Assembly (NCBI GenBank): GCA_958295815.1 | Contig: OY282374.1 | Coordinates: 514,856-578,855, forward strand | From: Candidatus Poribacteria bacterium | GTDB taxonomy: Bacteria; Poribacteria; WGA-4E; WGA-3G | Direction: 5' to 3' | Length of the DNA: 64,000 nt | Shown here: one piece after another, positions 5,179 through 62,861 of the stretch | How positions within the stretch are numbered: the stretch's first letter is position 1 | How the letters are laid out: each line of letters begins with the position of its first letter | The notes under the pieces: model-generated | Database searches by the model: none | Told to the model about the DNA's origin: nothing | What the model saw: only the letters and a program-made list of their open reading frames with translations | Position numbers and translations under genes: made by a program

Positions 5179-5769
5179 ATGAAACTTATTGTTGGGCTTG
5201 GAAATCCCGGGCTGCGCTACCAATACACTAAACATAACATCGGTTTTCGCGTAATTGATGCCCTCCACGAAAAAACGCAACACAATCGGCAGATCTCGCG
5301 CCATATACAAACATCGGTCTGCAAATCGCTTGTTATGCAAACAACATGGCACGACACGTCCGTTATCCTCGCGAAACCGATGACATATATGAACAACAGT
5401 GGCGTCGCTGTTGCTGCACTCGTCAATCGGTTTGAGGTGCCGCTCTCGCAACTCTGTGTCGTCTATGATGATGTGCATTTGGACATCGGGGTCCTCCGAA
5501 TACGACAGAAGGGAAGCGATGGCGGACAAAAGGGGATGAAGTCTATCATTCATCGCTTGGGTACAAACGAATTTCCGCGCTTACGTATCGGTATTGGCGA
5601 ACCGGTCGGTAATATGGTGGATTACGTCCTAACAGAATTTTCGGAAGCCGAAGAGATAGAGATTGAACCGACTATTCATCGAGCAGTTGATGCTGTTGAA
5701 GCGTTTGTTACAGATGACATCCTTACAGTCATGAATCGGTTTAACAGACGCGAACCGGTCGGAAAATGA
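5179..5769 (+). CDS. pth: peptidyl-tRNA hydrolase
   Basis: MKLIVGLGNPG...HN.G, PMTYMNNSG and RLRIGIG motifs. Confidence 0.9.
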   Translation: MKLIVGLGNPGLRYQYTKHNIGFRVIDALHEKTQHNRQISRHIQTSVCKSLVMQTTWHDTSVILAKPMTYMNNSGVAVAALVNRFEVPLSQLCVVYDDVHLDIGVLRIRQKGSDGGQKGMKSIIHRLGTNEFPRLRIGIGEPVGNMVDYVLTEFSEAEEIEIEPTIHRAVDAVEAFVTDDILTVMNRFNRREPVGK

Positions 5770-5874: not shown

Positions 5875-7293
5875 ATGTTGCTGACAATATCAACCACGTA
5901 TCCTCCTGCAACCGACCTCGGTTATTTGTTGCATAAACACCCATCACGAATTCAATCCTTTAAGCTCGCCTTTGGTCAAGCACACGTCTATTACCCAGAG
6001 GCACATGCTGAGAGGTGCACGGCAGCACTGCTTCTTGATGTTGATTCGGTTGGACTTACCCGCCGTCCGCACGGACAGTTCTCGGAAAATTTCGCACTGG
6101 CGCAGTACGTCAGTGATCGTCCTTACGTTGCTTCGTCGTTTTTGAGCGTCGCGATCGCGCGGGTGTTTAGCAGTGCGTTGTCGGGCAAGTGCAAAGAACA
6201 TCCAGACCTCGCTGAGACCGCTATTCCTTTACGTGCAAAATTATCCATCTTGCCATGTCGTGGAGGAGAGGAATTGTTGCGACGACTTTTCGAGCCGCTG
6301 GGTTATATAGTAGAGGCAGAACGACATGCGCTGGATGCTCAATTCTCGGATTGGGGAGAGAGCCGTTATTTTACAGTGACGCTCGAAAACACCTGTCGCT
6401 TGAGCGAACTCCTCACACATCTTTACATTCTGATGCCTGTACTTGACGACGAAAAACACTATTGGGTTGACGATGCCGAGATCGAAAAACTGTCAAGGCG
6501 TGGTAATGATTGGCTTGCTGCGCATCCAGAACAAGAATCTATTGTCCGTCGCTATTTGAAACATCAACAAGGTCTTACGCGAAAGGCACTTGCCCAATTG
6601 CGCGAAGAAGATGTTCAACAAACTGACGAGCCGATTCAGCAAGAAGCAGAAGCGCAGGTTGAAGAACGAATGGGTCTCAACGATGTCCGTTTGGCTGCGG
6701 TCACTGAAGTCCTCAAACAATGTGGCGCGAAACGTGTTCTTGATTTGGGGTGTGGTGAAGGGAAACTTCTCCGAAGGTTATTGGCTGAAGACCAGTTTGA
6801 AGAGATCGTTGGAATGGATGTTTCACATCGCGCACTAAAGATCGCGCGGGAACGACTTCGTCACGATAGGTTGCCAGAGAAACAGAAAAAACGACTTCGT
6901 CTGTTCCAAGGGTCGCTCGGATATCGAGATAAACGCTTGGTTGGATACGATGCAGCTGTGGTTGTAGAGGTAATCGAACACTTAGATTTGCCACGACTTT
7001 CGGCTTTTGAGCGGGTGCTTTTTGAATCTGCCTGCCCCCGAACCGTGCTGCTGACAACACCAAACATAGAATACAACGTGAAATTTGAGAACCTACAGGC
7101 TGGACGCTTCCGACATAAAGACCACCGTTTCGAGTGGACGCGGGACGAATTTCAGTCCTGGGCAACCAGTATTTCTAACCGCTTTGGTTATACCGTTATG
7201 TTTCATTCAATCGGACCAGAGCATGAAGACGTCGGATCACCGACACAGATGGCAGTTTTTGTCCGAGAAGGTCGGGAAGGCAAAATAACATGA
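5875..7293 (+). CDS. hen1: bacterial Hen1 3'-terminal RNA ribose 2'-O-methyltransferase
   Basis: bacterial Hen1 N-terminal domain (ATDLGYLLHKHP) plus C-terminal SAM methyltransferase (VLDLGCGEGKLL); 4-nt ATGA overlap with pnkp. Confidence 0.85.
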   Translation: MLLTISTTYPPATDLGYLLHKHPSRIQSFKLAFGQAHVYYPEAHAERCTAALLLDVDSVGLTRRPHGQFSENFALAQYVSDRPYVASSFLSVAIARVFSSALSGKCKEHPDLAETAIPLRAKLSILPCRGGEELLRRLFEPLGYIVEAERHALDAQFSDWGESRYFTVTLENTCRLSELLTHLYILMPVLDDEKHYWVDDAEIEKLSRRGNDWLAAHPEQESIVRRYLKHQQGLTRKALAQLREEDVQQTDEPIQQEAEAQVEERMGLNDVRLAAVTEVLKQCGAKRVLDLGCGEGKLLRRLLAEDQFEEIVGMDVSHRALKIARERLRHDRLPEKQKKRLRLFQGSLGYRDKRLVGYDAAVVVEVIEHLDLPRLSAFERVLFESACPRTVLLTTPNIEYNVKFENLQAGRFRHKDHRFEWTRDEFQSWATSISNRFGYTVMFHSIGPEHEDVGSPTQMAVFVREGREGKIT

Positions 7294-35742: not shown

Positions 35743-35866
35743 AAGTTCTTTTCCTGTTCGCTGGCGAGATTTCCTAACCTCGCAGACCTTCATGAAATTC
35801 TCAATGCATATATTTTATCACAATCTTTACAAATTGTCAAGTGTGTTTTGATTTGCCATAATTTTC

Positions 35867-36051
35867 CTGTAGGAGGGATCTCCGAATCCCGATATTAGCT
35901 TCTCTGTAGGAGGGATCTCCGAATCCCGATACATCTTTAGCTTTCCTGTAGGAGGGATCTCCGAATCCCGATACATCTTTAGCTTTCCTGTAGGAGGGAT
36001 CTCCGAATCCCGATATTAGCTTCTCTGTAGGAGGGATCTCCGAATCCCGAT
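35867..36051. repeat. five-copy tandem array of hairpin repeat family A (ctgtaggagggatctccgaatcccgat), with 11-15-nt linkers arranged A-B-B-A
   Basis: exact 27-nt unit five times; linkers attagcttct / acatctttagctttc / acatctttagctttc / attagcttct. Confidence 0.9.
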
Positions 36052-36187
36052 AACTGACAACCGAAAATCGAAGACTGGAAACTACACCGTTGACATTCTG
36101 GCGGTCGTAGACTATAATAACAGTGGTATAGCCCTATGAGAGGGTGCTTTCAAACCATATAAATTATAAAAGGATAAGGTGATTCTG

Positions 36188-53323: not shown

Positions 53324-54289
53324 ATGAAAGCTGGGCAAATTGTCGCACCACATCAAATTGAGATTGTTGATATAGAACAACCGAATCTTGCCGATTATCC
53401 CGATGGTACAGTGAAGATAAAAACTGCTCATAGTGCCATCTGTGGCACTGATATGCCGTCGTTCGTCCTTGAACACCCGGCGGAAAGTTATCCACTTCAA
53501 CCAGGGCTTTCGATTCACGAGGCAATCGGCGTTGTCACAGATAGTAAATCGGACAGATTCAAAGCGGGGGACTCCGTCCTCGCACTGCCACGCTACATCG
53601 GTGGACTTTCGGAATACTTCCTGTCGGATGAGAGCGTCACGATGCCGTTGACGGATTTCCCACGGAAGGACTGCATCCTAATGTCTCAACCGCTTGGCAC
53701 TGTTGTCTGGGCGTGTCGGAAGCTGCCGAATCTGCTCAATCTTGATGTGGTTGTTGTCGGGCAGGGCCCCATGGGGCTTCTCTTTACGCACATGTTGAGC
53801 AATCTCGGTGCGAAGACGGTGATCACAACCGACGTTGTTGACTTCCGACTTACCGTTTCCAAGAAGATGCGTGCCACACACACAGTTAATGTTGAAAAGC
53901 AAGATCCAGTTGCTGTTGTTGAGAAAATTACGGAGGGCAGAATGGCGGATCTGGTTATTGAGGTGGTTGGACACCAGACAGAGACGATCAATGATTGCCT
54001 CCAGCTGCTAAAGCGCAGTGGAACGCTCCTCGCCTTCGGTGTGCCAGACGACCAGATTTACGATTTCCATTTCGCTGACTTCTTCCGAAAAAATATCAAC
54101 TTCATCGGATCCGTCGGACCAGATGCCCCAAACGACTTCCCACTGGCGATGGATATGATTGCTCAGGGTCGTTTGGATGTATCGCCGATTATCACGCATC
54201 ATCTGCCTTTTACAGAGGCGCAACTCGGATTTGAAATGGCTCTGAACAGGAAGCATGAAGCGATCAAGATTATTTTCGACTACGAATAG
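53324..54289 (+). CDS. zinc-dependent medium-chain alcohol dehydrogenase family
   Basis: CGTD catalytic zinc motif, VVGQGPMGLL Rossmann. Confidence 0.8.
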   Translation: MKAGQIVAPHQIEIVDIEQPNLADYPDGTVKIKTAHSAICGTDMPSFVLEHPAESYPLQPGLSIHEAIGVVTDSKSDRFKAGDSVLALPRYIGGLSEYFLSDESVTMPLTDFPRKDCILMSQPLGTVVWACRKLPNLLNLDVVVVGQGPMGLLFTHMLSNLGAKTVITTDVVDFRLTVSKKMRATHTVNVEKQDPVAVVEKITEGRMADLVIEVVGHQTETINDCLQLLKRSGTLLAFGVPDDQIYDFHFADFFRKNINFIGSVGPDAPNDFPLAMDMIAQGRLDVSPIITHHLPFTEAQLGFEMALNRKHEAIKIIFDYE

Positions 54290-54415
54290 TAGCAGGCACA
54301 CTCCGCTGTGCCGTCACATAGTAGCAGGCACACTCCGCTGTGCCGTAAAAGTAGTAGGCACACTCCGTTCTGCCGTCACATAGTAGTAGGCACACTCCGC
54401 TGTGCCGTTCACAAA
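54286..54415. repeat. four tandem copies of hairpin repeat family B (tagtagcaggcacactccgctgtgccgtcaca) between convergent genes
   Basis: 32-nt unit x4, each with hairpin ggcaca-ctccgc-tgtgcc (third copy mutated to gttctgcc). Confidence 0.85.
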
Positions 54416-55458
54416 GGCAATTCAATCGGACGTCCCTCACGGCTTGATTGGTAGATAGCGAGGATAATTTCCACAGCTTTGCGTCCTTCGCGTCCGTCAA
54501 CGAGGTGCGAGGCATCTTTCTCAAGTCCGTTAATTAGGTTTTCCATCTGCCGCCGATGATTTGCATGGTTTATAGCACGTGGGTCGGAGGCACCGCCGCC
54601 GGTATCCGTTTTTTGTGCGAATTGTTCTCGGATTTCCGCATCTTCAGGAAGTTCTGGGTCAAATTCCCAGGTCACGATGTCCTCTTCGGCTAAGACGACA
54701 GTCCCGTGTGTGCCGGAGATTTCAGTCTTCTTGAGCATGCCGGGGTAAGCGGCAGTCGTGCCTTCGATGACACCGAGTGCGCCGTTTTCAAACCGAAGTG
54801 CAGCAACAGCAGCGTCTTCGACTTCGATCCGTTCGTGCGCCAGTGTATCGGTAAAGGCTTGGACAGATTTGACGGGACCCATGAAATACTGGAGTAGGTC
54901 AATGGCGTGAATAGATTGGTTCATGAGCGCGCCGCCGCCATCGAGGTCCCACGTGCCGCGCCAACCGCCGCTATCGTAGTATTCTTGGGAACGATACCAT
55001 TTGATGTAAGCATCGCCTAAGGTGAGTTTACCGAACCGACCGCTCTCAATTGTGGATTTAACGAGTTGTGTGCTTTCGGTGAAACGAGAATTAAAGATGG
55101 CGCATAATCGGACACCCGCCGCGTCACAGGCTTCGATGATCGCATCGCACCGTGGTAAGGTGATTTCCAGCGGTTTTTCGACGATGACGTGTTTACCGGC
55201 TTCTGCGGCAGCGACAGCAGGTTCCAGGTGCGCACCGCTCGGCGTACAGATGCAAACGATGTCCAGATCGTCACGTTTGAGCATTTCCATATAGTCGATG
55301 TAGCTGTCAACGTTGTATCGGTCGGTGAGCCGTTTGGCATTTTCAGCGTTTCTTGAACTGACTGCGACGAGTTGACCGTGTTCTAATTCAGAAATTGCGG
55401 CGGAGTGAAAATCTGAAATCATTCCACATCCGATAATACCGAATCCGTAAGTCTTCAT
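54409..55458 (-). CDS. Gfo/Idh/MocA family oxidoreductase
   Basis: MKTYGFGIIGCGMIS Rossmann N-terminus. Confidence 0.85.
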   Translation of the reverse strand: MKTYGFGIIGCGMISDFHSAAISELEHGQLVAVSSRNAENAKRLTDRYNVDSYIDYMEMLKRDDLDIVCICTPSGAHLEPAVAAAEAGKHVIVEKPLEITLPRCDAIIEACDAAGVRLCAIFNSRFTESTQLVKSTIESGRFGKLTLGDAYIKWYRSQEYYDSGGWRGTWDLDGGGALMNQSIHAIDLLQYFMGPVKSVQAFTDTLAHERIEVEDAAVAALRFENGALGVIEGTTAAYPGMLKKTEISGTHGTVVLAEEDIVTWEFDPELPEDAEIREQFAQKTDTGGGASDPRAINHANHRRQMENLINGLEKDASHLVDGREGRKAVEIILAIYQSSREGRPIELPL

Positions 55459-62564: not shown

Positions 62565-62680
62565 AATATGCCTCCCAGTTGAAGCGTGCAGTTACAGGTT
62601 TCCGAAACTTGTCATTATATTAACACGCTCGCAAATTTGTGTCAATAGACTGTTTTTGTATCTCAGGGCATTCAGCTTTT

Positions 62681-62808
62681 CTGTAGGAGGGATCTCCGAA
62701 TCCCGACTCTTCTTTCTGTAGGAGGGATCTCCGAATCCCGACTCTTCTTTCTGTAGGAGGATCTCCGAATCCCGACTCTTCTTTCTGTAGGAGGATCTCC
62801 GAATCCCG
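62681..62808. repeat. four-copy tandem array of hairpin repeat family A with 9-nt linker ctcttcttt (last two units carry a 1-nt deletion)
   Basis: ctgtaggagggatctccgaatcccgactcttcttt repeated. Confidence 0.9.
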
Positions 62809-62861
62809 ATTCTGGTCTAAAGTGGGCAGCATACCATAAAGTCGAATTCCAACAAAAAAGC

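Follow-up and report, generated by a model that had tools for sequence, protein, structure and literature searches.

Within a 64-kb stretch of DNA from a Candidatus Poribacteria genome (contig OY282374.1; the window, meaning the whole 64,000 nucleotides analysed), two families of short hairpin repeats headed by the tetranucleotide GTAG, here called A and B, occur at five sites. The family B copies form a single array between two convergent genes, arranged as follows.

53324–54289, + strand: Zn-dependent dehydrogenase (ADH_zinc_N), the gene upstream of the family B array
54286–54415, + strand: family B array, in which a bulged B-type GTAG palindrome is repeated four times head-to-tail with spacers of 6–8 nt
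54409–55458, − strand: GFO/IDH/MocA oxidoreductase, the convergent neighbour of the array

The four copies, reported in a preliminary description of this DNA, are recovered from the sequence, by Tandem Repeats Finder (54286–54413, period 32, 4.0 copies, 87% matches) and by a covariance model, and the placement of the array between convergent genes, also claimed there, is confirmed by the dehydrogenase on the + strand and the oxidoreductase on the − strand. The GTAG heads lie at 54289, 54321, 54351 and 54383, and the unit, 30–32 nt including the 6–8 nt spacer, reads (A)TAGTAG-YA-GGCACAC-TCC-G-C-TGTGCC-GT. The first copy adjoins the TAG stop codon of the dehydrogenase (54287–54289), and it is the leader of the repeat that provides this stop. 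In the third copy (54351–54376) TTCTGCC replaces CTGTGCC, a stem change without compensation; the stem covariation proposed for the window holds in general but not for this copy.

The preliminary description had suggested building a covariance model; one made from variants of both families was run over the 64-kb window with filters off. At E ≤ 1 it returned 16 copies at five sites and no others, four of family B (54286–54411) and twelve of family A (534–563, 19083–19162, 35866–36053, 62680–62812), each consisting of GTAG followed by the hairpin (16/16). The pattern GTAGNAGN{4,5}CTCCG had 14 matches in the window, compared with 0 expected from 100 shuffles. All 16 copies, from 534 to 62812, lie on the + strand whatever the orientation of the neighbouring genes, which may be chance (about 1 in 16). 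A replication-strand bias as a general rule was rejected, as the GC skew of the GTAG strand was positive at 52 and negative at 64 of 116 loci (p = 0.3).

The association of head and hairpin extends beyond the window. When only the CTCCG motif was fixed in the search, GTAG was found ≤8 nt upstream of 154 of 160 perfect CTCCG hairpins; when only GTAG was fixed, it was followed by a hairpin 616 times, compared with 282 in shuffled DNA. Other GTAG-headed palindrome families are present in the same genomes, for instance GTAG-GTGCGGTT-TCC-AACCGCAC and GTAG-GGGCAACC-CTTGT-GGTTGCCC. Of the conserved loop CTCCG(A/C) that had been proposed for A and B, only a part remains. Relatives of family B such as GGCATAC-TCC-GTATGCC and GGCACAC-GCC-GTGTGCC have a C...G closing pair round a 3-nt apex, and in their general form, GGCAYAC-NCC-GTRTGCC, they possess a perfect 7-bp stem with TCC, GCC, ACC or GCT as triloop. 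The C and the G of CTCCG accordingly pair with each other in the stem, and among B-type copies the apex varies. In the window copies of family B an extra unpaired C after the closing G forms a 1-nt bulge, and the bulged form recurs elsewhere, with C in 29 copies and T in 9. The family consensus can be written as (A)AAGTAG-YA-GGCAYRC-NCC-GYRTGCC-GT, of which the window copies are a variant with one additional unpaired base. Family A has the window consensus GTAG-GA-GGGAT-CTCCGA-ATCCC-GAC (full unit CTGTAGGAGGGATCTCCGAATCCCGAC), and copies of this unit are arrayed at 19086/19136, 35863–36053 and 62678–62813. It can also be read as a bulged stem, GGGATC-TCC-G[A]ATCCC, and a perfect variant, GGGATTT-CC-AAATCCC, is present in L002. 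Family A is probably a Poribacteria-specific relative built to the same design, in which the GTAG head is followed by two unpaired nucleotides, then by a short stem-loop and a brief tail that is conserved.

The claim that A and B share one architecture and differ by compensatory stem changes is supported by two data sets. Metagenomes were searched with a degenerate B-type pattern that fixed neither the apex base nor two positions in the arms and that allowed for a bulge; as this pattern tolerated mismatched arm combinations, it provided an unbiased test of pairing, with one count per locus. At the free stem position the loci comprised 93 A:T, 32 G:C and 7 G.T combinations and no A.C (Fisher p = 3e-24), although 19% A.C would be expected from the marginal frequencies. 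When 21 distinct variants of the two families, picked by hand, were aligned, 97.9% of cells were paired, compared with 84% after shuffling of the 3' letters and ≤49% after sliding of the partners, and both sides had changed in five of seven pairs. Compensatory stem changes well above chance mean that the hairpin is under selection, and the selection for pairing is real. Since G.T occurs and A.C never does, the strand that folds is suggested to be the one carrying GTAG.

The family A sites of the window, two of which retain ends of a transposable element of the miniature inverted-repeat type (MITE), are the following.

534–563 (hairpin 537–561), + strand: solo family A variant GTAGGAGCGATCTCCGAATCGCGAC with the stem GCGAT/ATCGC
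19060–19194, + strand: degenerate copy of the MITE, containing two hairpins of family A (19083–19112 and 19133–19162) and the right terminal repeat AAAACTGGATACCCTA (19179–19194)
35859–36056, + strand: five family A hairpins in an array whose period is 37 and 42 nt by turns, making a 79-nt super-unit
62664–62846, + strand: MITE-derived array with four family A hairpins and the left terminal repeat CAGGGCATTCAGCTTTTCT (62664–62682)

The solo stem variant, noted in the preliminary description as a third compensatory form, was found again and recurs in other genomes. Read from the sequence, TCTATG is present on both flanks of the degenerate copy (19054–19059 and again from 19195) and may be the remnant of a target duplication. 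The five-hairpin array lies between divergent neighbours, a ferredoxin-like gene (−) and a short-chain dehydrogenase (+). In the array at 62664–62846 the last two hairpins are short of one G and are followed by sequence matching part of the right half of the MITE, while the repeat units at 62678–62813 are near-identical including their spacers (98%, Tandem Repeats Finder).

Conserved flanks are frequent at family A hairpins in general, extending about 20 nt upstream, where they read (T/C)AGGGTCATTTAGTTCTYCT, and farther downstream, where they begin with ACCTCACT. At 62 bp, a full element consists of the left end, a hairpin and the right end; at about 120 bp, it runs from the left end through hairpin A, a variable second GTAG module and an A-rich segment to the right end AAAACTRAATRRCCCT(A). 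Among 137 family A sites, 25 carry both ends, 41 carry one and 71 none (≤3 mismatches). Exact flanking duplications of 7–10 nt accompany 12 of the 25 two-ended copies, compared with 1.7% when flanks were re-paired randomly. The target duplications of the element are 9–10 bp long and varied in sequence, the ends having the form (C/T)AGGG...CCCT(G/A) (copies with duplications: L009, L018, L027, L034, L040, L057, L070, L099 and L109). Such 62- or ~120-bp MITEs, with inverted ends and 9–10 bp target duplications, contain about half of all family A sites, and family A is shown to be mobile by way of the MITE. Within the window, recognizable MITE ends are kept in the arrays at 62664–62846 and 19060–19194, and no MITE-type ends are present on family B. 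A larger structured RNA spanning the whole MITE was considered and rejected, given an RNAalifold covariation term of −0.12 and folding no better than that of shuffles. The same ends delimit a longer element.

L106, 2679–4062: parent insertion sequence (IS), 1,382 bp, with the same ends as the MITE and a flanking 10-bp direct repeat

This IS, of which one full copy was seen, contains a 398-aa open reading frame (ORF) that matches the IS630-family transposase model NF033545 (170 bits, cutoff 100) and Pfam DDE_3, and its right end equals the right ~40 nt of the MITE. The MITEs, whose ends match those of the 1,382-bp IS with its IS630-family transposase, derive from it. In their terminal inverted repeats, non-coding nature, target duplications and IS-derived end the family A elements are similar to MITEs of the IS630/Tc1/mariner group. 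They differ in that their duplication is 9–10 bp, whereas characterized IS630-family elements duplicate the dinucleotide TA (PMC2170065), a type of duplication not encountered in this MITE, and in that their interior GTAG modules are absent from the parent, no GTAG hairpin being present in the interior of the L106 IS. The closest published precedent is GTAG-15 of Anabaena variabilis, dimers of which lie in long palindromes (TATAGGAnTnnnATTTGATT...; PMC3733652) in the manner of TAGGGTCATTTAGTT...GTAG hairpin...AACTAAATGACCCTA here. Target duplications or an autonomous parent are unreported for GTAG-15, while both are identified here, and the units here are single or head-to-tail rather than dimeric.

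The two families differ in their distribution. The exact family A 24-mer was found in at least 117 stretches of a species-level genome collection, from roughly 35 assemblies that are all metagenome-assembled genomes of Candidatus Poribacteria, and family A was not found in viral contigs. The B-type pattern matched 18 viral-contig stretches and at least 120 stretches from metagenomes of many non-sponge habitats, the latter with GC contents of 38–75%, and its 25-mer recurs almost letter for letter across genomes spanning this GC range. Family B is a local variant of a widespread repeat and family A is specific to Poribacteria. In metagenomes 35 inverted doublets of the B-type repeat were observed, in all of which GTAG points outward, and a metagenome contig of 63% GC (L221) holds a 22-copy head-to-tail array of a bulged B variant with a 33-nt period, the layout of which parallels the four-copy array of the window. 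One phage or prophage contig (L250–L267; IMGVR_UViG_3300031576_000108, 44 kb) carries about 23 B-type repeats, a density far above viral expectation, and encodes a terminase large subunit (L258, 3318–5339).

The convergent pair of dehydrogenase and oxidoreductase is kept in synteny in six related assemblies, and homologues of the gene beside the B array are 91–93% identical and reside on Poribacteria chromosomes, although an exact look-up of the dehydrogenase of the window gave no record; the DNA between the two genes is different in each assembly. The orthologous genes overlap in L248, leaving no intergenic DNA. In L245 and L246 the spacer is an inverted pair of other GTAG palindromes, in L249 it contains GTAGGAGGGCTTTGTAAGCCCGCC, and in L243, L244 and L247 it is a GTAACAATT...AATTGTTAC palindrome with heptamer-like runs. 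Among the related assemblies compared, only the window has the B array at this position. As the orthologous site in related species is empty or occupied by other repeats, the B array is a lineage-specific insertion in an intergenic hotspot.

Both families show preferences with respect to neighbouring genes, as judged from crude longest-ORF gene models. Of 136 family A sites, 128 are intergenic, and 58 of 118 placed sites (49%) fall between divergent genes, compared with 114 of 704 background gene pairs (16%; p = 2.6e-15), which bears out the earlier statement that family A arrays lie upstream of genes. B-type sites are found between convergent genes in 24 of 63 cases, compared with 87 of 447 in the background (p = 0.0035); published repetitive extragenic palindromes (REPs) likewise favour convergent gene pairs (PMC3733652).

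The analysis shows that both families are dispersed, that most copies are intergenic and that compensatory change maintains the pairing of their stems. The most probable interpretation, to which we give a probability of roughly 0.7, is that a GTAG-tagged REP-type repeat, clustered head-to-tail, makes up the B array, and that family A has the same design and is in part cargo of a MITE. In GTAG-1 and GTAG-2, an unpaired dinucleotide follows GTAG and a 3-bp tail is conserved (Di Nocera et al. 2013, PMC3733652). GTAG-REPs as portrayed there and in two further reports (Nunvar 2010, PMC2817692; Corneloup 2021, PMC8266576) share with A and B the sequence of GTAG, dinucleotide, 5–7 bp stem, 3–6 nt apex and tail. 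They likewise occur in many copies that are mainly intergenic, and both complementary stem sub-families and TAG stop codons supplied by GTAG termini have been described for them (PMC3733652). Inverted doublets with GTAG outward and the preference for convergent pairs are common to REPs and the B-type repeat, clusters of GTAG-REPs arise by tandem reiteration of the unit with flanking DNA as in the arrays here, and group 2 REPs have a bulge in the stem, as do the window copies of B. Mosaic clusters such as the bacterial interspersed mosaic elements (BIMEs) of E. coli and those of Neisseria similarly combine small repeat families in modular fashion at hotspots whose occupancy varies between relatives, although the REPs of BIMEs alternate in orientation with defined linker motifs, whereas the arrays here are direct repeats of a single unit. 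The sequences of A and B themselves were not found in the searchable literature or in the supplements of the 2013 catalogue.

If this interpretation is correct, the hairpin would be selected as a single-stranded DNA recognition structure for a trans-acting REP-associated tyrosine transposase (RAYT), a tyrosine HuH transposase, by analogy with described systems. Arrays would grow by slippage or unequal recombination duplicating hairpin and spacer together, family A would spread mainly through the action of a DDE transposase on the MITE ends, and any effects on neighbouring genes, such as protection of mRNA 3' ends or promoter spacing, would be secondary. Tandem duplication of hairpin plus spacer does explain the local structure of the arrays. 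The preliminary description had set the repeats apart from simple slippage products; this is upheld at the larger scale, where slippage is insufficient because the repeats are dispersed across many genomes, but not for the individual arrays, whose structure fits slippage or unequal recombination.

REPs are defined by their partner, the RAYT. A homology search with E. coli RayT, identical to PDB 4ER8, listed only enterobacterial relatives, and in the sampled DNA around A and B copies neither this query nor two profiles and motif scans revealed a RAYT. A sub-threshold match to NCBIfam NF047646 on a Poribacteria chromosome (L098, 432–824) corresponds to the N-terminal half of a RAYT-like protein and keeps the HuH motif; a GTAG-GGGCAACC palindrome breaks this gene, and GTAG-GGGCAGG palindromes lie ahead of it. 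The genes most closely related to it, found on other Poribacteria chromosomes (L238; L239–L242, 4001–4516), adjoin type I restriction-modification genes, are truncated and are filled with in-frame GTAG palindromes. In RAYT-like genes the in-frame GTAG-GGGCAACC and GTAG-GGGCAGG palindromes encode RATTRVAPT and VGAGLVPAQ, and several of the poribacterial genes are flanked on both sides by genes for type I restriction-modification (hsdS, hsdR). REPtron-like loci exist in Poribacteria, and the ones encountered are in decay and go with GTAG families other than A and B. Further candidates were discarded. L081 (5557–7193) is an ordinary IS200/IS605 element (TnpA of 137 aa and TnpB of 406 aa) located 4 kb from the repeat, with other GTAG-like palindromes directly outside it; L153 (3–803) is a sub-threshold match only, 7 kb from the repeat; and ordinary genes are enclosed both by the inverted family A copies of L031 and L043 and by two B doublets 700 bp apart in L190.

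Several observations weigh against assigning A and B to REPs. In the ORFs of the roughly 1.7 Mb sampled, no RAYT gene accompanies any A or B copy, and in this the two families depart from known GTAG-REP/RAYT systems; the poribacterial RAYT-like genes encountered are without the C-terminal catalytic tyrosine motif present in intact relatives, and they are tied to the GGGCAGG and GGGCAACC families instead of A and B. The window copies are all on one strand and head-to-tail, and family A copies are single or head-to-tail only; inverted pairs, the organization of REP doublets forming hairpins (REPINs) and of BIMEs, were observed for the B-type repeat in metagenomes. The preference of family A for divergent genes is the opposite of that of classic REPs, and the placement statistics were computed with crude longest-ORF gene models. 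The way in which loci were fetched accounts in part for the invariance of the family A 24-mer. Finally, folded as single-stranded DNA, family A reaches −3.1 kcal/mol (z = −0.3), no more stable than shuffles; the corresponding values are −5.4 kcal/mol (z = −1.4) for the window B copy and −7.4 (z = −3.0) for a perfect B hairpin.

Part of this evidence can be turned into a different proposal, namely that the B-type 25-mer is the site of an undescribed hairpin-binding system acting on single-stranded DNA or RNA, either a new mobilizer or a host function, and that family A is this module after an unusual IS630-like transposon, one making target duplications of 9–10 bp, had captured and dispersed it. 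The near-invariance of the 25-mer across 38–75% GC and in phage, the lack of RAYT genes found near copies and the decay of the poribacterial RAYTs are the reasons to consider it; we would still call it distinctly improbable. We are somewhat less reserved about a role of the hairpins mainly as RNA elements, transcribed with the 3' ends of convergent genes (family B) or within 5' leaders (family A), in mRNA stabilization, pausing or termination, or as small RNAs, with RNA folding as the source of the covariation, though this too is unlikely. The B array begins at a stop codon between convergent genes, B-type sites are enriched in that setting, REPs have been reported to affect mRNA stability and termination (PMC3733652, PMC8266576), and the tolerance of G.T (7 loci) with absence of A.C fits folding of the GTAG strand. 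However, recognition of one DNA strand explains this wobble asymmetry equally well, and B-type repeats mostly form inverted doublets, which place the motif on both strands. Rfam 15 gave no match on the A or B arrays at E ≤ 10 (the sole match in the window at gathering threshold is a tRNA gene at 2334–2405), no T tract or terminator-like site with a GC-rich stem and T run was found in 53900–54800, family A in tandem gene pairs shows no preference between sense (29) and antisense (24) orientation, and the array at 62680–62812 is antisense to both neighbouring genes. Together with the weak hairpins and with an orthologous site that is empty or filled by unrelated repeats in sister species, these results speak against the dedicated structured RNA or cruciform element of the preliminary description. 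A CRISPR array was likewise rejected, as the spacers are 6–17 nt long and repeated within each array.

If a host protein (gyrase, a transcription factor or a nucleoid-associated protein, for example) instead bound the hairpins as double-stranded or cruciform DNA, and family A were retained in promoter regions for modulating the expression or topology of divergent genes, the strong enrichment of family A between such genes would follow. A near palindrome CTCCTGTAGGAG round the GTAG head, read from the sequence, and the binding of IHF, gyrase and Pol I to REP/BIME sequences of E. coli, as summarized in PMC2817692, are compatible with this. Yet about half of the A sites lie in target-duplicated elements, so that insertion bias and the tolerance of promoter-rich spacers explain their location; distances to flanking genes vary (76–239 nt in the window), as do copy numbers (one to five per site), and the flanking genes lack a common function. 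We therefore rate a host-protein site as very unlikely. Least probable of all, and hardly tenable in our view, is an inert by-product in which a single hairpin insertion was amplified by replication slippage and the covariation stems from a few founder variants. The near-identity of units within each array, spacers included, the uncompensated change in the third B copy and the thermodynamic weakness of the hairpins are in its favour, but the loci come from many unrelated metagenomes with no A.C against an expected 19%, several independent stem variants are all paired, and the same 25-mer persists in genomes of 38 to 75% GC.

Taken as REP-type selfish repeats, the hairpin families fall into an established class of element and need not be read as regulatory RNA of a new type. 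Such repeats typically combine stem covariation with an apex that is semi-conserved, and this combination by itself is no sign of a regulatory RNA. The finding adds REP-type repeats to an uncultivated phylum of sponge symbionts for which none appear in the searchable literature, and it provides a clean example of a GTAG hairpin as MITE cargo with the parent element identified. For annotation, the repeats mark intergenic hotspots and likely break points of assembly or recombination in Poribacteria genomes, and the B-type consensus can be used to flag this class of repeat in many environmental genomes. Two minor leads for the mobile-DNA field are RAYT genes that their own repeats have invaded and an IS630-family transposase associated with duplications of 9–10 bp.

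Some further repeats accompany the two families. A 234-bp composite in L002 (about 6780–7015) has the same terminal repeats as the family A MITE and several hairpin families inside it, and shows modular mixing of repeat families; one of its hairpins belongs to family A, one is B-type (GGCACAC-TCC-GTGTGCC) and one reads CCCCGAT-CTA-TCGGGG, and an A-like module without a head is present as well. A recurrent repeat beginning ACTATAGTAGATTTTAGAATTAATGATACAC lies beside B-type hairpins in L025 (about 1990–2060), L098 (about 5210–5290), L038 and L058. Heptamer-like runs (CTGACYG, CCGATAG) are located beside palindromic repeats at 19113–19130 of the window, in L112 and L020, and at about 2966–3100 of L243, L244 and L247.

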